A stretch of 64,000 bases of DNA from Euprymna scolopes (taxonomy: Eukaryota): assembly GCA_053919585.1 (NCBI GenBank), contig CM132803.1. One strand, written 5' to 3'. The stretch's first letter is position 1. Each line of letters begins with the position of its first letter. The translations under genes and the position numbers were made by a program. Shown one piece after another: positions 1,866 to 38,760 of this stretch. Under the pieces are notes generated by a model. That model did no database searches and was not told the origin of the DNA. It saw nothing but the letters and a program-made list of their open reading frames with translations.

Positions 1866-2841
1866 GAGGTGTATGTCAATTAAGCTTTAAAGAAAACACA
1901 AAGGAAATAGCATGAATAAATGAATAACAAAGAGATACTTTAAGAACATGAAAGCATTAACATTTATTAGGGAGAAAAGATCACAAAGGGTTGGGACAAA
2001 GGAAAACTGCAAAGTTCAATTATCAAAATATACTCAAGTTCAGATGTTCACCAGTTCGACTGTAAAGTAGCTGCCTAGAATTGTCCTTCAGGCAAGCGCA
2101 AAGTTTAATTTAACAAACGGGAGAGAAATCAGAAATTAGAGGTTTTGAAAGGTATAGAAACTTACTGTGTGGTTATCGTTCAATAATCATCTTTTTTTCT
2201 TTAAATGTGTATCTTATATACATATATCCTCTTCGCCTTTTCCGAAGATACGTAATTCTTTAACTCTTTCAAAGTTCATTTTCGATGAAGGAATTAATCC
2301 AAGTACAAGCACTGATTAGGTAAAATCCTTAGTCTGCAAAAAACTCTTCAGTAGGTGTATCCTTTATAGCGCCACGACAACGACCATAATTCAGCTTTCA
2401 TCTTGACTGCTCCGTAGATGATATTTAAATTGCCGCATGTGCGTCACTTTCCACGATCAGATTCTAACTTGAAAAAGATCGATTTTCTCTTTCTCTTCAC
2501 ATTACCAAGGTACTACAGCTTGGTCTCCTTTTCGGAGCATCTTCCTTGAACACTCCAGCATACCTTTATATTCGTTCATCTGAATAATGAAATGCATTTC
2601 CATTTTAAAGACTGATATTGTCTGAGTTCCTCGAGACTTTCGTAACGGCGTGTTACGTGCATCAATTCTTCTCTGAAACCGGTTGTTCGTTCTTCAATTT
2701 CTTGTCAAAAAAAGGGCGGTGAAAACCCTTAGCCAATCAAATGTCATGACAGATGGCGTGATCTTAAGTCATCAGCAGCAGCTTCTTAATCTAACACAAA
2801 AAAACAAGAAAGGGAAGGAAAGAGATAAAGAAGGAAAGAAA

Positions 2842-3956
2842 TTAAATTTCTGACAGACTAGCGTTTTCTAGAATGCAGAAACATAGTTCACCTTTATTGT
2901 TCTTTAGCGAGATTTTCGTATTGCCTCTTTTCAAAACGCTATCATTTACTCGACTCCCGTCAGCTAGTTCTACAAAATGATTTTGTGGCTTAAAGTTGGG
3001 GTCAAAATTGATAAAATCAAATTCCTTTGTAATCACATATGCCGTGGCCCTACAATCGACAAGAAAATTATTATTGTTTGTTGAAGCATTAAACGTACAC
3101 AAAAAAAAATACATGTTCGCTAACAGAGCTCTCTACATTTTTAATGGAGTCGCCATTTTGAGTCCTGTATCTACATTGGAAACTCTTGTGATTAGGTCGT
3201 CCACAATTATAGCAAATAATTTTTGTACTTTTCTTAGGAGAAAAATTGTTTTTGGCAAAGTTGCGGTTTTTATTTCTGGCATGGGTATAATTTAATTTTG
3301 GTGTTTTTATGTGTGTATTTTTAAATTTCATGATATTTGTGGATTCGTTTTTTTCTGTGATCATTTTTGTGTGATCGTTTTTTTCTGTGATCATTTTTTC
3401 AGTTTCTTCATAACTTCTGAGTGCTACCTTGAATTGGCTAAAAGTCAGGGGTTTTTCTTTCTGGGTTATAAATGGCTTGGTGATAAATGGCTTGAAATCA
3501 CTCAGTAATCCTTTAAGGACCATGGAAAGTAACAGGCTGTCACTTATAACTTCACCAGACATTTTTAAAGAATTTGCAGTCGTTTCGGCTCTTATAATAT
3601 AATCAGTAATAGTTTCGGCTTCCATTCGTTTTAGAGAGGTCAGTTCAGTGTATAAAGAAATAATTTTGGGTTTTTCTTTCAATAAATAGTGCTCTCTCAA
3701 TATGTTTAATGCTTTGCAGCCATCGTCCAGGGCTTCTCTCATTACCAGTGATAAACTTCGGTCATCTAAACATTGTATTAATTCCGCAAAGACAGTTGCG
3801 TTCTTTTCAATGAAGTCGGGGTCGTTTCTGTTTTGAGGTTGTGTTTGAAGTACTTTGTATCTTTTGGATTCGTAGATATCCTAGAAATTTAACTTGCCAC
3901 AATTTGAATTTTGATTCGGATCCATCGAAATAAAGATGCACGCTGGGCCCATAACC
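2842..3956 (-). mobile_element. Copia LTR retrotransposon 5' fragment (PBS, gag, zinc knuckle, protease)
   Basis: Gag KALNILREHY...KIISLYTELTSLK...TDYIIRAE; CCHC knuckle CYNCGRPNHKSFQC; protease FLVDCRATAYV; PBS GGTTATGGGCCCAG (+ ctgggcccataacc, 3943-3956), the internal tRNA-iMet half-molecule PBS of copia. Confidence 0.9.
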
Positions 3957-4657: not shown

Positions 4658-5442
4658 TGTAGTGGATATATTATATATATCCCCGAGTCGTAAAAAACAT
4701 GAAAAATGAATTGTTTTGAGAAAGAGACGAACGTTTTAAATTGAATTAAATGAACTAAAATTTATTTCGTGAAGAAACACAGGAAAGAATAGGGTACAGC
4801 ACACATTTAGTTTGGCGTGCATCTCTGGTTGTTTACTTGTGAGAAGGAAAGTCTATTGTTTGGCATGTGTCTCTCGCTGGTGAGAGGGAAAGTCTATAGT
4901 TTAGCATGCATCTCTTGCTGTTAGCTGGTAAGAGGGAAAGTCTATTGTTGTAGAGAGAGAGAGAATCAATCCAGGCGATGGAGATAGAAAATGTGTAAGG
5001 TGTACGTACTGTCTGTTAACTCTTGCCCCCACACATATAGTAACAGGGGATGTGACGTGTGCGCGTGCCACGAAAGGGACAAATGGTTTGTCGACCACTC
5101 AGCTCAGAAGGCGAGTCGAAAAAGGGTAGGAAACAGCTTGTCTCTTGCTTTTATAGTTGTTTCCGGTGGTCTTTTGCGCATGTGTGGATTTCCTTCAAAG
5201 GGGAAGTAACGTTGCCCATGTGTGCACGTATGTGTGCATACATGTGTGTATGTTAGCGTGTGTGTGTATACACATGAATGTGAGTGTATGTACGCGAACA
5301 TGAATATATGTACGTGTGTGTATGTGTGCGCGTATGTGTATAACAAGAAAAGTGGTTTGAAATGCGAATGCATGTTTTTGTGTGAGACTAGGTAAGGCTC
5401 CCAAAATACTCCCCTTCCCAGGGAAAAAAAATATGCAGTGTA

Positions 5443-5480
<38 letters not shown>

Positions 5481-5516
5481 GTAAGTAATGTTTTCGGCAG
5501 TTGTCTTTTCGTCCTG

Positions 5517-5547
<31 letters not shown>

Positions 5548-7246
5548 GTGTGGTTGTTTAAACAACGTCAAAAACGGAATCTGTTCATAAAAAAGTATTT
5601 ACTTACGCGTGGAAAAGGCGCGTACTCTTTCTTTTTAGGCTGACATTTGTTTTGTTTGTTTTTTTGTTGTGTGCTGACATGTGCAACGAGTTGCTTGGAC
5701 AGTGAAGTGAATTGTTCATTTAGAAGGAAAATTTTTTGTTTCGTGTTGACATCGTGTCTCAAGTTGACGGTGTCTTCGCAAATGAGTCTGCGGTAGTGTG
5801 TGTGTAAATTTTCTGTACGGGCGTTTATTGTGCATTCGTTTGTGTTGAATGAGTTTCCAGTTGCCGGTGTCAATGAAACTTCCAGTTGTGAGTTTATCTG
5901 TGTGCGTGGTGCATCTCAACTCATTGTTAATTCAGCTTCTTCCTATGTGTTGATAGTGATGTCCTGTAATTGTTTCTTTGTTGTTGCGTCTGCTGAATGG
6001 GAGAGAATGTGCATAGGCCTATGTGATTTTGCTCCTCGCGTTTGTTGCAGGGTAATGTTAGGAAACCGTGAAAAATGTTTGCCCAGCTCGAATTTTTTAA
6101 AAATTCGGTATGAAGTCGACAGCTCCGTGTTTATTTTTCTGCCGAGTCTGACAAGGAGTTTCGTCATTGTAGTTCGTTGAGGTTCTTGTCAGTAGTAGGT
6201 CACTTGTTTTTCTTTGTTGAAATGTTCGGGGGTTTTTTGTTTATCAAACAAAACGCGCGTCTTGCTCAAAACAATCAATTTCAAAAAGATAGGGTCACCA
6301 TGCATGTTTGTTTCACATCAGTCAGTCACCAGTTTGTTGCAGGACTTGTGGATTAGAAGGAAATGCGTGTTCATCTAACGTTCGGGTGTCACCAATTTGT
6401 TGTGGTCTGGTGGTATAGAAGGAAATGCATGTTCCTCTCGCGTTCGGGTGTCACCAATTTGTGGTGGACTGGTGTAGGGTATAGAAGGAAATGCATGTTC
6501 ATCTCACGTCAGGTCACCAATTTGTTTTGGACTGGTGGATATATTATATATATCCCCCAGTCGTACAAAATATGAAAAATAAATTGAATTGAGAAAGGAA
6601 AAATGAATTGTTTTGAGGAAGAGACGAACAACGTGTTAAATTGAATTAAACGAACTAGAATTTATTTCGTGAAGAAACACATGAAAGAAAAGGGTACATC
6701 ACGCGTTTAGTTTGGCATGCGTCTCTCGTTGTTTACTTGTGAGAACGAAAGTCTATTGTTTGGCATGCGTCTCTCGCTGTTAGCTGGTGAGAGGGAAAGT
6801 CTATTTTTGTAGAGAGAGAGAGAGAATCAATCCAGGCGATGGAGATAGAAAACGTGTAAGGTGTACGTACTGTCTGTTATTTCTTGCCCCCACACATACA
6901 GTAACTGGGGACGTGACGTGCGCCCCAAAAGGGGCGAATGGTTCGTCGACCACTCAGCTCGGAAGGCGAGTTGAAAAAGGGTAGGAAACAGCTTGTCTCT
7001 TGCTTTTATAGTTGTTTCCGGTGGTCTTTTGCACATGTGTGGATTTCCTTCAAAGGGGAAGTGACGTTGCCCATGTGTGCGTACATGTGTGTATGTTAGC
7101 GTGTGTGTATACACGTGAATGTGAGTGTATGTACACGAACGTGAATATATGTATGTGTATGTATGTGTGCGCGTATGTATATGACAAGAAAAATGGTTTG
7201 AAATGCGAACGCGTGTTTTTGTGTGAGACAAGGTAAGGCTCCCACA
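4658..7246 (-). mobile_element. Non-autonomous LTR retrotransposon (~2.6 kb, LARD/TRIM-like), ~730-750-bp LTRs, non-coding interior
   Basis: Direct repeats 4658-5405 and ~6523-7246; TG...CA outer ends; 4-bp TSD CATT (4654-4657 and 7247-7250); PPT GGGAAGGGGAG on minus at ~5408-5419; tRNA-Trp-like PBS TGGTGACCTGACGTGA at ~6504-6519. Confidence 0.85.
6291..6535 (-). repeat. Tandem array of ~62-bp units, each carrying a PBS-like TGGTGAC and LTR-end-like bases
   Basis: tcacca ends at 6300, 6331, 6394, 6456 and 6519 (62-63-bp period for the last four); shared core tagaaggaaatgc(a/g)tgttc. Confidence 0.8.
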
Positions 7247-32170: not shown

Positions 32171-32908
32171 GAAAATATGTGCATTTTGATTGGCTAGAAA
32201 GTCAATAACCTCTTTCATGTGGGGTGTCTTCAGCTACATCCGCCGAAGAATGGGTTTGATTGGGTCAGTGGCTGACGAAATATTTTCGTTTTTTATATGT
32301 TGGCTAGAAGGGTGCATAAAGGTGCATGCGTGAGAGGTGAATTTTACGCGTTGTGTCTAAGGGAGTCGAGATGTCAACATCCAGTTGTGTTGTGTGCTAT
32401 TGTTTTTAGTTGAGTAGCCCACACCATTGTTTGCTAGGGTGACGGTGAGGCTATGATATGGCTCCCTTCTTAGAAAATTGATTGGGAAAATCAATTCAGT
32501 AATAAATATATGTTTTAAAGTTGTCAGGAAACTAAACTATTCTTCCTGATTTGGTGCGGATGATGGGTTTGGGTGCTTCTACACAATGATAAGACAGCAC
32601 ACCATGTTTTATTTGAATACTGGGTCAGCGTTTACTTTCGATGAGAAATATTTTCATCTCAGGGCTCTGACAAATGTCTGTACAGAGAAACTGGAGACTC
32701 CCAAAGATGGTGTCTAGTAGGCATTAAGTTTCTCCCCCTGTCTAGTAGACATTCATGTCTTAACAAATCTAATTTTATTGAAAAAGAAGATTCACATATT
32801 TCACAAATATATGATTTCTCTCTTTAATTTTTTATTTTGTTTTTGTTGGAGCTATGGCAGTCCACCGGATGCCAGTCATTTACCTGCTATTTCAAACACT
32901 CCAAACGA

Positions 32909-35900
32909 TGTGACACTTACGTCACCCGCGCGTCGTCCAGTGGTGGAATGACCCCGGTTGTCGGTTCTGGTGTTTCCTCGGCGATGATGTCAACGGCCGG
33001 TATCCTGAAACAGACTTGTCATGCAAAACAATTGAAAGGACCAAGTCAACAAGCGTTTCCTTTTGTACAAACTTCCTTGTATTTCGACAACAGTACAATC
33101 GCAGCTAGCTGTTCAGTTAGGGACTGGCCACTTGTTAACTGCGAGGTTTTCTCTTCTCTCTCCGACAGAAAACTCAATTATCTACGTGATAGGGTCAATC
33201 GATGGGGGAATCTTCGTTCGTCGGACCCAAGGAAGCAAAGCTCTCTCTCTATATTTCTAGGCTCTATAGAGGTCGTCTCTCTCGTCTTAAACCTTCGCTC
33301 AGTGTCGTCCCTATAGTCGTCAGGAACTCTGTCCTCATCTCGCGTTTGACTACCCCCGGGATTCTTTATCTTTTCACCCGTCTCCTTCATCCAAACTTGG
33401 TCACCCTGTCTTAACTGTCTAGTAAACGCTGCCTTTCTTTCTTCTGGTCCTATTAGTCCTATCGGCCGTCGCCTTGAGGACCGTCCCTGATTCTCGGACT
33501 ACTGGATCTGTAGGAGTTACTTCCTTCTTATTAACCTTATACGTCGCTACCCGTTTGACTTGGGACAATTTTCCTCCCTGTTCCTTGGTGCTATCCACCT
33601 TGCCCATACAGGCCCCGACCGTTCTTGGGGAAAGCTTCCTGTTGCTGTCAGCTCCCATAGGGAGAGGGACAGACCTTGTGTCACCTAGTGGTATCTTCAC
33701 CCCTCTCACCGTTAGCGCGTCTGGATTAAAACTCAGAGTGGCTCCCCTCGCTCGGAGCCAATCCTCTCCCAGAATTATTTCGTTGCATAGCCCGGGTACC
33801 ACATACAGGGGGAAATTCTCTTTCTTTCCGGCCACTCGTACGGGTAGCCATACCTTCCCTGTCACCGACATCCAGCTACCGTCGGCCTGACTGAGCCCCA
33901 CATCCGATGGGTACAACCTTCTCCTCCCTGCCACAGTCCGACAGACGTCCGCGTCTATTAGGGATATTATTGCTCCGGTGTCAACCAGAGCCTTCACCTG
34001 CATGGCTCCTATCGTCACATTACAGGTGAGTTCTCCCTTTTTTGTGAGCGGAGGGGACACCTGGGCTCTCCTCTTTTCCTGTTTCAGGGTTCTCTCCTGG
34101 TACCCCGCTCCCGTGAGCATCGCAACTTGTGACAGTGGTTTCTTTCCAACCCTACCTGTCTGCCCTACCTCTCTTTCTCTACAGATTCGCCGAGGGGGTG
34201 GGGTTTGGTTCTGATTCCCTCTCTCCAGAGGATCTTTCGCCCTCAGGTGGCTTTTTCCTCGGTCAGGACAGTCCCTCCTAATATGTCTCAGGTCTCCACA
34301 CCGCCAACACCTGTGGGACTGGTGGCTGTAGGAGAAATGGTCAATTTTACCTCCTCTCTGACACGCGTTCAGTTCGGTCTTTACGATGCCCACTCTTACT
34401 CTCCCATTCTGTCGGGGTGTCTTCTCGTGGACAGTGGGGCACTCTCTCGACCTGTGGCCCTCGCCGCCACAGTTCCAGCACACCAATCCAGGCTGGCCCC
34501 GGGCGAGTCCTCCGGCCCCATATCTCATTCTGTTCCCCAGTTCCCCGCTCCTATTTCGCGACTCCTCTCCCATTATTCTTTTCTGCAACCACGCATAGTT
34601 CTTAGCTATTTTGCGTGCTTCTTCTAGAGTGTCTGGGCAACTCTTTAGCACCTCTATTTTGGTCGCTTCGTCCCGCACTGCATCCACCATCGTGTCAACT
34701 AGCATTGCTTGGGTCGTGGGCATATCGCGGTGTTCGGTCACCGGATACGCCAGGACCGCCAGTTCTTGCATGCGGTCGACCAGTCTATCCACGTCTTCCC
34801 CGTCGGCCATCTCTATTCGAGACAGCTCGCGCACCGCCTGCACTGTTGTCTTTTCGCCGACGAATTTCCTCTTCACCTGATCGCGAAAATCAGACCAGGC
34901 TATGCCCGGGTTACTTTCCAGGCATTTGCATATATATTCTGAGGCCGCTGCGACTGCTCCGTCACAGGCAAGCAGCACCATTTCTCTATCGGTCAACCCA
35001 TATACTAATCTTTTTTTTTCTATTATCGCCAACCACTCCTTGACTCCCCTCGGGTCTCCCCCTATGCGGGTACGCTGATTCCCCACAGTGGCCGCTCCAT
35101 GGTCATCTGCAGCTCAACAGTCTGCCCTGACCCTTCCCCCATCGACTGACCCGCCCCGAATCCTTCCTGAGAATACATTATGTTATTATCTATTTTTTTT
35201 TTCACTCCTACCACTCCTCGCCCCCTACAAGGTGTAACAGCGCCCAACACAAAACACAGACAGCCGCTGAAAGCAAAGCATACAAAAGAGGGAACCAGCA
35301 AAAAAAATGGACTTACCCGGTCTGATGCACTTGTGTTCTTCTGCGACTGGTGGATGAGAATGACTAACGAGCTGTTCAGACTTTATAATCAGTTGATTAA
35401 AGTTCGTCGTCTGGCTTCACTCGTGGCGTTTTTTTTTTTTTTCCTTCTTCTTTTTTCTTTTTTTTTTCAAGATGCGCTTTGGTTTCGAGTTTACTTTCTT
35501 TCCTTTTTTTCTTTTTTTTTTTCAATTTTGGCTTTCTCTCTTTTTCTCCCTCCTTGTTTTGTTCGTTTTCTTTTTCTTTTTTTTCAACTTTCCCTTCCCA
35601 CTCTCACAGGGAGATCTTGTGCCTTCGAGAGAGAAAAGAAAAAAAATTGTGTGCCCGTGGAAATTCGTTCGCACGTTTCCTACCGAAACGAGGTATCACA
35701 GGTCGTCGGCACCAGTTATGTGACTCTTACGTCACCCGCGCATCGTCCAGTGGTGGAATGACCCCGGTTGTCGGTTCTGGTGTTTCCTCGGCGATGATGT
35801 CAACGGCCGGTTTCCTGAAACAGACTTGTCATGCAAAACAATTGAAAGGACCAAGTCAACAAGCGTTTCCTTTTGTACAAACTTCCTTGTATTTCGACAA

Positions 35901-36736
35901 CAGTACAATCGCAGCTAGCTGTTCAGTTAGGGACTGGCCACTTGTTAACTGCGAGGTTTTCTCTTCTCTCTCCGACAGAAAACTCAATTATCTACGTGAC
36001 AGGGTCAATCGATGGGGGAATCTTCGTTCGTCGGACCCAAGGAAGCAAAGCTCTCTCTCTATATTTCTAGGCTCTATAGAGGTCGTCTCTCTCGTCTTAA
36101 ACCGTCGCTCAGTGTCGTCCCTATAGTCGTCAGGAACTCTGTCCTCATCTCGCGTTTGACTACCCCCGGGATTCTTTATCTTTTCACCCGTCTCCTTCAT
36201 CCAAACTCGGTCACCCTGTCTTAACTGTCTAGTAAACGCTGCCTTTTTTTTCTTCTTGACCTTCCTGGTCCTATTAGTCCTATCGGCCGTCGCCTTGAGG
36301 ACCGTCCCTGATTCTCGGACTACTGGATCTGTAGGAGTTACTCCCTTCTTATTAACCTTATACATCGCTACCCGTTTGACTTGGGACAATTTTCCTCCCT
36401 GTTCCTTGGTGCTATCCACCTTGCCCATACAGGCCCCGGCCGTTCTTGGGGAAAGCTTCCTGTTGCTGTCAGCTCCCATAGGGAGAGGGACAGACCTTGT
36501 GTCACCTAGTGGTATCTTCACCCCTCTCACCGTTAGCGCGTCTGGATTAAAACTCAGAGTGGCTCCCCTCGCTCGGAGCCAATCCTCTCCCAGAATTATT
36601 TCGTTGCATAGCCCGGGTACCACATACAGGGGGAAATTCTCTTTCTTTCCGGCCACTCGTACGGGTAGCCATACCTTCCCTGTCACCGACATCCAGCTAC
36701 CGTCGGCCTGACTGAGCCCCACATCCAACAGGTACA
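32909..36736 (-). mobile_element. Non-autonomous Gypsy (gag-PR only) with ~1.0-kb LTRs that overlap its coding region
   Basis: Direct repeats 32909-33915 and 35719-36736 (~98-99% identical); TG...CA; TSD ACGA (32905-32908, 36737-36740); PBS-like TGGTGCCGACGACC (35701-35714); purine tract GGCAGGGAGGAGAAGG abutting the 3' LTR. Confidence 0.9.
33419..35086 (-). CDS. Gag-protease polyprotein (555-aa open frame; true start probably ~35178 before a 1-nt frameshift)
   Basis: Two CCHC knuckles (CWNCGGEGHRSREC, CWRCGDLRHIRRDC); aspartic protease ALVDTGA...IILGEDWL; no RT, RH or IN core. Confidence 0.8.
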   Translation of the reverse strand: MGNQRTRIGGDPRGVKEWLAIIEKKRLVYGLTDREMVLLACDGAVAAASEYICKCLESNPGIAWSDFRDQVKRKFVGEKTTVQAVRELSRIEMADGEDVDRLVDRMQELAVLAYPVTEHRDMPTTQAMLVDTMVDAVRDEATKIEVLKSCPDTLEEARKIAKNYAWLQKRIMGEESRNRSGELGNRMRYGAGGLARGQPGLVCWNCGGEGHRSRECPTVHEKTPRQNGRVRVGIVKTELNACQRGGKIDHFSYSHQSHRCWRCGDLRHIRRDCPDRGKSHLRAKDPLERGNQNQTPPPRRICREREVGQTGRVGKKPLSQVAMLTGAGYQERTLKQEKRRAQVSPPLTKKGELTCNVTIGAMQVKALVDTGAIISLIDADVCRTVAGRRRLYPSDVGLSQADGSWMSVTGKVWLPVRVAGKKENFPLYVVPGLCNEIILGEDWLRARGATLSFNPDALTVRGVKIPLGDTRSVPLPMGADSNRKLSPRTVGACMGKVDSTKEQGGKLSQVKRVATYKVNKKEVTPTDPVVRESGTVLKATADRTNRTRRKKGSVY

Positions 36737-36789
36737 ACGAGAGATCAATTTAAGATTTTAACAGTCTGTTTAAGTGCAATTGTTTGTAT

Positions 36790-37560
36790 CTCTCTTAGAC
36801 TTACAATGATACAGATTTGATTGGGGCGATTTGTGAGGTCTCTGACAGTTGGAAGTGGTTTAATGGTTTTGTAGTAGAGCCCAGAATCAACAGGCATTCA
36901 GTCAAGTCATTTAGGGTTAGTAGAGAATTAATTTCTGTCAAAAGTTTATTTTGATGGGAGGTATCCCATAAGTTGGCTATCATATGCTCAGAGAATGAGG
37001 TTGTACATTGTTGGTTGCTGCAACTACATTGTCTTTTGAAGGTGCAGATGCTTATGATTTCAATCGGGAAATGAAGGACATGATAGTTTCCCCATCACCT
37101 TGCCTCATCACAAAGAATTGTTGACAGTATACCTCAGGGTGGATGGATTTCACTGCAATTGATTTAATATATCCTAGCAGTTGTTCCTCTGTGGAATTAT
37201 TTAGGGCATCTGGACCAATGAAATTAAACAGCATTTCATTAACACACAAACTGTATGTGGATCCTTTATCGTTTTCGGTTTCTGTCGGATCAGTGAGTTG
37301 TGTCATCTCTTTGTAGCAGAACCACATATTTTGGAAGATAATGCATTTATTATCTGAGGAGTTTGGTCCTGTAACTGAATGCTTGGATTTCATGGTGAGG
37401 GTGTGTTTTGTTTGGCAGATAATAAACATGCCATAAAGTGTATTATTCATTCGTGCATGGCAAGCTGTTGTTGCTGCATTTGTATCAAGAAAGTTATCAG
37501 CTCGACTTTGGTCTGTTTTGATGAGCGTTTGTATGAGTTAGACATTTTTAGTAGGTATTG
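36790..37560 (-). mobile_element. Gypsy gag fragment
   Basis: TEEQLLGYIKSIAVKSIHPEVYCQQFFVMRQGDGETIMSFISRLK capsid-like motif. Confidence 0.7.
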
Positions 37561-37689
37561 TAGCTAAAAAATTCAAAATATATACAATGTAGAAGCGCTA
37601 CTGAATAGGGTTTAGGTGTAAATATGGAGGTAAGGGTTTAAGAGATATTTAAATTTCTGATGTGTGTCAACTGGTTTTGTTGCATATCT

Positions 37690-38760
37690 TATTTCATTCT
37701 TGGTTTGGGACGGTTCGTTTTTTGGGCAGTTACAGTGTTTTTGTAGGAGGCAAAATCCAATTCCAGATTTTGGCCAATCAGTTTCCAAGCATGTGGCTTT
37801 AACCAGATCAAAGATGCGGATACCATGTTCAATTTCAGTAACAATCGATGACTTGGAGTCCTCATTCCACTTGAATTGGGTGGTCGGTTCAAGAAGCTCC
37901 CTGAATGGTAACATGCTATCTGTCATGTTGAAGGCATAAGACACTTGGTTCGTGAGACTGAACCATGAACAAACATTGGTGATGTTTTTCGGCATCGGGA
38001 AATCCTGTAAATACTTCCTACATGGGCAGACACTGTTTTTGATGTTGAATCCAGCAAATCCAACGATGTCTGCTCCAAGAATAAATTTATCTGAGTTAAG
38101 TGTGATGCCGTTTCTTCCACAGATGTCAAGCCAGTTTATTGTCTGAAAAAAGCTTTCTACCAAATTTTCGGCCCATAACAAAGCATCATCAATGCACTTT
38201 GTCTTCCATGGTATGTCCACGACAATCTCATCATAGCGTCGTGTGTATCCATCGCTGGAGGCAATGTAGCCCTGTGGTGCAATAGCGACCTCAAGGGGTG
38301 ATAAATGTGGTAAAATGGCGATCTTCCTTACAGAGGGGTACACTGTGGTAACCATATCACGCATCAAAGACAGTCTTCTTTTTACCTGACTGAATGTGCA
38401 GGAATGACGATGGTATGTGATTGGTTTCATGAATTGCAAAAGCATTTAGGGCTTAAAGATTGACTGTGTGTCTTGGTTGGCCATTTTTCTTTGTACAGGT
38501 CATCATTTTATGACACTTGGTGACAGGTTCGCCAATTGGTGACAGGTTCAGTGACTTCCAAATTGCACATCTCCAGCAACTCCTTTTTTGACTTCCTCCC
38601 GCCAATGTATGAGAATCGATAAAGGCATATGATGAGCTAGAGGCTCAGCATCGGGGTCCACCACGCAACTCAGCTTTAGCAATGGGGAGTCCATCATAGG
38701 TAATATTTGATGTTCAGATGTGTTAAATGTGCACCATATAGATGAAGAAGAAACTACTGA
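37690..38760 (-). mobile_element. Gypsy RT/RNase H fragment
   Basis: APQGYIASSDGYTRRYDEI..KCIDDALLW; CGRNGITLNSDKF; LETDWPKSGIGFCLLQKHC. Confidence 0.85.

Follow-up and report, generated by a model that had tools for sequence, protein, structure and literature searches.

The Euprymna scolopes window analysed here (64,000 nucleotides of contig CM132803.1, assembly GCA_053919585.1, to whose whole length all window positions refer) harbours a Ty3/Gypsy element of 3,828 bp on the minus strand (32909-36736) that is bounded by direct terminal repeats of about 1.0 kb with TG...CA ends. Its internal region carries a gag-protease frame, and a domain search revealed no reverse transcriptase (RT), RNase H, or integrase in this copy, which is accordingly not an autonomous element. 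Both long terminal repeats (LTRs) are chimeric, joining coding sequence of the protease gene to the end of a normal LTR of the same family. In the 5' to 3' direction of the element, the following features can be distinguished, including the target-site duplication (TSD), the primer-binding site (PBS), and a cryptic polypurine tract (PPT):

36737..36740, no strand: TSD copy at the 5' end of the element, ACGA on the plus strand; the empty site of the paralogue L223 has this 4-mer only once
35719..36736, minus strand: 5' LTR, chimeric, TG...CA, 1018 bp, from repeat comparison
36056..36736, minus strand: surrogate 'U3' of the 5' LTR, 681 bp, consisting of the C-terminal half of the protease and the protease-RT spacer; 97.8 % identical to the internal region of family copy L032
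36056..36061, minus strand: junction microhomology TAGAGA (6 nt) of the 5' LTR, where internal sequence passes into normal LTR at about position 651, from comparison with normal copies
35719..36055, minus strand: predicted R-U5 in the 5' LTR, the last ~340 bp of the normal family LTR, assigned from TATA and poly(A)-like motifs
35697..35714, minus strand: PBS of degenerate tRNA-His type, 4 nt behind the LTR; first 8 nt perfect, 10/18 ungapped
35114..35696, minus strand: 5' leader with A-rich tracts and the gag start region of the family, the latter out of frame with the main open reading frame (ORF), from sequence comparison
33419..35113, minus strand: gag-protease frame with capsid-like region, two CCHC knuckles, and aspartyl protease; 564 amino acids stop to stop, ending early inside the 3' LTR
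33916..33932, minus strand: cryptic PPT (14/15 purines, 9 G) and 2-nt spacer GT within the protease coding sequence for VAGRRRL; putative site of plus-strand priming
32909..33915, minus strand: 3' LTR, chimeric, TG...CA, 1007 bp, from repeat comparison
33246..33251, minus strand: junction microhomology TAGAGA of the 3' LTR, from comparison with normal copies
33078..33083, minus strand: AATACA, candidate poly(A) signal by motif, at position 820 of the normal LTR
32905..32908, no strand: TSD copy at the 3' end of the element, ACGA on the plus strand; a single 4-mer in L223

The ACGA duplication, the TG...CA ends, and the ~1.0-kb LTRs had been recognized in a first-pass annotation of the sequence and are corroborated by an empty site, since a paralogue of the surrounding host repeat (L223; E 2e-27 for the left and 6e-15 for the right flank) passes from one flank into the other with only one 4-mer in between, which reads CCGA instead of ACGA. 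The TSD is thus not a chance match, and no host DNA was lost upon insertion. The first-pass annotation had also named the case that would point to a local tandem duplication with a coincidental 4-mer, namely a boundary shared by no other copy together with an empty site lacking a single ACGA; the boundary is indeed unshared, but the empty site holds its single CCGA. This site was displayed by one of 19 non-self loci matching the left flank, and in the 19 loci paralogous to the right flank, where similarity starts ~70 bp from the insertion, it is not displayed. No tandem repeats were detected at 30-40 kb of the window. The two LTRs differ by 13 substitutions over 1007 aligned bases (10 transitions and 3 transversions; Kimura two-parameter distance 1.3 %) as well as by one 10-bp and one 1-bp gap, and each of the 13 differences is private to one LTR when compared with natural copies (seven in one, six in the other). 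Their density is equal in the protease-derived part (9/670, 1.34 %) and in the R-U5 part (4/337, 1.19 %), which argues for one duplication time of both.

Each LTR corresponds to positions 2803-3483 of the parent copy L032 (681 bp; C-terminal half of the protease and spacer), followed by approximately positions 651-994 of the normal LTR. The 3' LTR starts within the Leu codon of VAGRRRL, directly behind GGCAGGGAGGAGAAG-GT; as noted at first pass, the purine tract preceding it is part of the protease gene (PF13975). About 2.7 kb is lost from the copy, namely the stretch from the end of the ORF through the 3' non-coding region and the PPT, together with the initial ~650 bp of the LTR. When the genome (5.9 Gb) was searched with the 5' repeat and 40 of 786 candidates were scored, the two repeats of the window alone matched from end to end; similarity in the other 38 was confined to positions 1-681/685. 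At the 28 non-self loci retrieved, this stretch is without exception ordinary internal sequence, with the protease gene on its upstream side and other sequence following downstream.

The parent family, whose reconstruction together with that of its true PPT and LTR had been proposed as a check, proved to be an abundant family of gag-protease-only elements of 6.4-7.0 kb. As deduced from twenty 10-kb regions, the normal element possesses LTRs of ~0.96-1.03 kb (TGAGAGACGC...GTGTCACA), 4-bp TSDs, and the PPT GATGGGAGGGGAGTGG, which is followed by AA and then the LTR. Its total length is 6381-6953 bp, with 2-14 substitutions between the LTRs (11 of 14 rows), and 15 of 24 solo LTRs are flanked by an exact 4-bp TSD. 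The one long frame of the family (735 codons in L032) encodes knuckles, capsid, and protease only, with matches to Ty3_capsid and Retrotrans_gag below the Pfam cut-off, and among the 150 protein matches scored, the top 95 were at least 85 % identical. RT, RNase H, and integrase are lacking across the whole family. Their absence from the window copy, as first noted, stands, but not their loss by this copy; the loss specific to it concerns the end of its ORF and, beyond that, the 3' non-coding region together with the PPT and U3.

The family PPT is absent in front of the 3' LTR, and the cryptic tract with its 14/15 purines shows the geometry of a true PPT (purine run, 2 nt, TG). Of the 151 TG sites that precede the junction, five have 13/15 or more purines and two have 8 or more G; the cryptic tract belongs to both sets. 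The family itself provides a measure of how strictly LTR starts are defined: 7 of 53 host-flanked starts lie 4-5 nt early, at a TG within the PPT, and in five insertions (L113, L114, L180, L185/186, and L187) this alternative TG is flush with the TSD. These early starts represent imprecise PPT cleavage that still integrates, so the machinery of the family tolerates shifted starts. Starts of this kind (TGGAA-TGAGAG) were seen at L113:5578-6588, L114:~4731-5712, L180, L185/L186, L187, L047, L045, and L200.

At the other end of the exchange lies the junction with the normal LTR. The normal LTR contains a GC box and a TATA box (starting at 615) as well as AATACA at 820, and transcription is expected to start ~25-32 nt behind the TATA box. 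Across natural LTRs with both sites in the printed context, a distance of 26-46 nt separates the first T of the TATA box from the junction behind it, which would, judging by these motifs, fall at the expected transcription start. The chimera is accordingly predicted to keep R-U5 and to replace U3, i. e., the promoter with its TATA and GC boxes. Among 19 segments of the LTR, segment 615-665 is the most variable in length (17 lengths in 69 LTRs, as compared to 10 in the next highest and one in the segment just before it). Linkage across the LTR is lowest at 600-725 (44 thinned LTRs), with r2 of 0.08-0.09 versus 0.25-0.37 on the same side (12-14 pairs). Both the length variation and the low linkage are as expected at a strand-transfer edge. 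RNA contigs of two studies that start at L037:1334-1336, near the predicted transcription start, were not counted because local variants can break contigs.

The rebuilt form appears to be unique. Exact as well as looser patterns of the junction gave two genomic matches each, namely the two LTRs of the window, as compared to 170 exact matches for the R-side 18-mer of the LTR alone. The new 5' end behind a non-family flank was found twice, in the window and at the unrelated site L104, which was discarded as a second copy since no family sequence surrounds it. Exact-pattern searches of the whole genome retrieved no precursor, progeny, or solo LTR of the rebuilt form; in particular, pattern searches found no precursor combining a normal 5' LTR with a deleted 3' end, and 5' ends at a purine tract nearer the junction gave 0 matches. 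Ten regions with partial protease matches turned out to contain frameshifts, deletions, and tandem or other-LTR copies, none of which starts at the cryptic boundary. A mobile sub-family would be marked by multiple copies or solo LTRs that share their ends but differ in their TSDs; none such are seen for the rebuilt LTR. The first-pass view of a parasite that had been mobilized as a lineage in this form is not supported, its junction and new 5' end being single-copy, and the rebuilt copy is predicted to be a one-off, a dead end rather than a new family.

We consider it fairly probable that the locus records one insertion of a gag-protease-only Ty3/Gypsy copy, both LTRs of which were rebuilt in one faulty reverse transcription. 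A normal family RNA would have been packaged with the enzymes of a helper and primed by tRNA-His. During the first strand transfer or directly thereafter, the slippery, AG-rich 3' end of the minus strong-stop DNA would have restarted at an internal TAGAGA ~2.7 kb upstream, so that U3 and the true PPT, together with the 3' non-coding region, would have been left uncopied. RNase H may then have left the G-rich purine tract in the protease gene to prime the plus strand, the second transfer would have copied the new 'U3' to both ends, and integrase would have trimmed two bases to give TG...CA and inserted the element with a 4-bp duplication. The broader first-pass proposal that the normal PPT was lost, that the new LTR start lies behind a coding purine tract, and that integration with a true TSD was brought about by enzymes in trans is supported. 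With the GC and TATA boxes lost, no transcription of the copy is to be expected, in agreement with its lack of descendants.

The same product would, however, arise in two steps, as envisaged in the first-pass annotation: a genomic copy would have lost ~2.7 kb (from the ORF end to LTR position ~651) by a microhomology deletion, and its still complete 5' LTR would then have driven an RNA devoid of the PPT, for which the purine tract in the protease gene served as plus-strand primer before a single integration. The family often shows internal deletions (L199-L202), and the geometry of the PPT, the TSD, and the equal ages of the LTRs fit such a course of events just as well. That no precursor was found, the junction being confined to the two LTRs of the window, favours a one-step error of reverse transcription over deletion followed by transposition. 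Moreover, a deletion could have ended anywhere in the ~650 bp of U3, so that an end within ~25 nt of the predicted start would presumably be a coincidence at the level of a few percent, albeit softened by the many microhomologies that the AG repeat offers. We therefore regard the two-step course as rather unlikely, and cryptic priming, which it has in common with the one-step course, as highly probable. More improbable still are purely local DNA events without cryptic priming, in which a normal insertion made the TSD, followed by a 3' deletion, a tandem duplication or gene conversion via R-U5, and a join at GTTG to the old LTR start. The GTTG microhomology at the 5' junction and tandem family copies that share an LTR (L042/L043 and L162) speak for this scenario. 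Nevertheless, it demands two or three rare events at one locus, with the last break falling precisely on the first base of the old LTR, leaving nothing of U3 and costing the host no base; post-insertion gene conversion would predict a protease part younger than R-U5, in contrast to the observed 1.34 % versus 1.19 %; and both the G-rich tract at the right 2-nt distance and the junction at the promoter edge stay unexplained. A misjoining of repeats during assembly is hardly credible: although no contig from four public runs bridges the junction or the empty site and loose ends at the junction follow normal internal and normal U3 sequence, these runs stem from other samples, and contigs show presence, not absence. 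The 13 sites that differ between the LTRs are each private to one of them, the novel junction is present identically in the two, and the flanks represent the true duplication of an empty site.

Several observations weigh against the one-step course. The cryptic tract matches the true PPT at 7/15 positions only, and another purine tract with TG nearer the junction (parent position 3151, 14/15 purines) was not used. On the element strand, the TSD ends in GT, the two bases that also stand before the new LTR start, resulting in a 4-nt microhomology GTTG (none of the 24 solo-LTR TSDs ends in GT); as GTTG is shared by the normal left junction and the protease site, a join at the DNA level would read identically. 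Furthermore, a purine tract stands before two of the 12 GTTG sites that lie between PBS and junction, which means that the tract alone discriminates only modestly. The variable zone of the LTR is a simple AG repeat, in which ordinary slippage can account for the length variation, and the unthinned LTR set gives a broader linkage minimum (525-650). Finally, the transcription start is predicted rather than mapped, with RNA data at the contig level, and exact-pattern searches miss mutated copies.

As for the coding capacity of the window copy, its gag-protease frame spans 564 amino acids stop to stop (520 from the first ATG), with the aspartyl protease (Pfam PF13975) at residues 365-454 of 564 and capsid matches below the Pfam cut-off. 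The long frame was thus rightly perceived in the first-pass annotation (as 555 amino acids), but a frameshift near 35063 separates it from the family start region, and gaps at 33446 and 33441 end it prematurely. Regarding the LTR content, the C-terminal protease half in each repeat was correctly identified, whereas LRQGDRVWMK is not an integrase tail: in pol-bearing relatives, the colinear counterpart of the motif is the protease-RT spacer and not the integrase. A weak integrase-tail match (E 0.001) at residues 643-721 of the parent ORF lies nearly entirely in the part lost by the window copy. The capsid of the family appears constrained, with dN/dS (ratio of nonsynonymous to synonymous substitution rates) of 0.06-0.24 in all 11 pairwise comparisons that aligned, as compared to 0.12-1.16 for the protease and 0.37-1.11 for the spacer/tail in family pairs; gag may have been exchanged with helpers, so that the capsid may have been under selection outside the non-autonomous line.

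The PBS, at first thought to match no nameable tRNA, is of the tRNA-His type. Its pattern has 447 matches in the genome, tRNA-His(GTG) genes were confirmed by ARAGORN at all four loci tested, and two of 20 distinct family PBS contexts match tRNA-His at 18/18 positions. In the other 18 contexts the PBS is imperfect (9-12/18 matches), as compared to a perfect PBS in the pol-bearing relative. This could reflect drift or escape from tRNA-fragment silencing. Large tandem arrays of tRNA-His-like genes were observed at G000:C40:48.03-48.05 Mb (period ~285 bp on C40) and C3:12.68-12.99 Mb. The PBS of Ty3 is not recopied from the tRNA (PMC5371799), and the perfect His PBS of some family copies may hence be inherited rather than repaired.

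A relative represented by L146/L198 shares the LTR and PPT of the family, has a perfect His PBS, and carries RT, RNase H, integrase, and a Baculovirus-F-like env frame (the Baculo_F match was tested in L198 only). The domain order PR-RT-RH-IN (protease, RT, RNase H, integrase) of L146 places it in the Ty3/Gypsy lineage, and the L146/L198 lineage is the likely source of the enzymes in trans. In domain order and env frame, L146/L198 resembles env-bearing, errantivirus-like Ty3/Gypsy elements, whereas both the pol core and env are missing from the window copy and its family. Two groups of Ty3/Gypsy relatives combine pol with env-like frames, L146/L198 on the one hand and L147-L150, L164, and L165 on the other.

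The gag-protease module occurs with at least three different LTR types in the genome. Older or recombinant relatives (L154, L156, L157, L160, L151, and L152) carry it with other LTRs, which in L154 measure ~1.4 kb, or, in the case of L151, fused to a pol region that follows it, and their gag and protease divergences differ, pointing to module swapping. At L161:3863-7735 (G000:C1), the same protease-spacer module lies between copies of a different, abundant 240-bp LTR; the 5' LTR joins the protease active-site codons directly, a join seen once among 40 scored matches. Tandem copies sharing LTRs, or near-identical solo LTRs at ~16-kb spacing, were observed at L042/L043 (G000:C4:1.32-1.34 Mb), L162 (C40), and L203/L204 (C5). 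The flanks of L055, L058, L063, L068, L070, L033, and L046 fit a 3-bp rather than a 4-bp duplication. The first ~110 bp of the normal LTR (L037:693-800) draw an extremely high RNA contig depth and match other repeats, and are likely an embedded abundant repeat. Beside the insertion, the window contains an older decayed retroelement (36800-38450) with a gag-like stretch on the minus and an RT-like stretch on the plus strand, both discerned by eye, and many paralogues at 70-80 %.

Non-autonomous LTR retrotransposons with gag or gag-protease only, known as TR-GAGs or GAG-PROT elements, have been described in plants (10.64898/2026.03.01.708851). The parent family resembles TR-GAGs in its LTRs, PBS, PPT, gag-protease frame, lack of an RT, RNase H, and integrase core, and its many young copies and solo LTRs; having kept gag and protease, lost the enzymes, and left many TSD-flanked copies, it can be called TR-GAG-like. 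It differs in its animal host, its length, and the env-bearing relative as likely helper. TR-GAGs are shorter than 4 kb, as compared to 6381-6953 bp here (again 11 of 14 rows), and GAG/PROT families above TR-GAG size also exist (10.64898/2026.03.01.708851). The window copy differs from TR-GAGs in that its U3 and PPT were replaced.

The individual steps of the proposed error have parallels as well. Internal, alternative, or central PPTs prime the plus strand in HIV-1 and in plant elements (10.1101/2023.06.12.544617, PMC7197481), and PPT mutants display shifted or extended U3 ends and integrate poorly (PMC4393142, PMC13395811), with strand transfer of extended ends being ~20-fold lower (PMC13395811). 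HIV-1, Ty1, and EVADE are thus comparable to the window copy in that internal purine tracts can prime and shifted PPT cleavage alters the U3 end (10.1101/2023.06.12.544617, PMC4393142, PMC13395811, PMC7197481). In the work cited, however, internal primers give rise to flaps or episomes, whereas the internal tract of the window copy apparently set a whole new LTR end that integrated in the germ line. The first strand transfer joins R-U5 to U3 (PMC6894440), and microhomology switches near R/U3 were proposed for a SERV-K/MER11 recombinant (10.1101/2022.05.11.490678). Such template-switch chimeras likewise join R-U5 to the U3 of another template with the aid of microhomology, but they retain a real U3 and PPT and are viable, while the 'U3' of the window copy is its own coding sequence. 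A natural integrated LTR starting at a coding purine tract was not found in the literature covered, which was partial, with most subscription journals outside.

Summed up, we lean towards reading the window copy as a germ-line fossil of LTR rebirth within a single cycle, in which a mis-landed minus strong-stop DNA swapped the whole U3 for coding sequence and a purine tract of the protease gene was accepted as the new end by RNase H and integrase. The evidence is a single copy, predicted to be dead, and retrovirology offers precedents for every step. New LTR ends and U3 regions are mostly deduced from finished families, whereas this copy keeps both scars (the junction at the promoter edge and the substitute PPT), and with ~100 unaltered relatives beside it each step can be checked. 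Structure-based annotation tools would call it a new family with a 1-kb LTR. The finding suggests that the end requirements of PPT and integrase can be loose in vivo, in keeping with about one in eight sampled family insertions starting at the alternative TG in the PPT. If such events are general, any internal purine run followed by TG would constitute a latent LTR boundary, and thus a route to new, unrelated U3 regions and LTR lengths.

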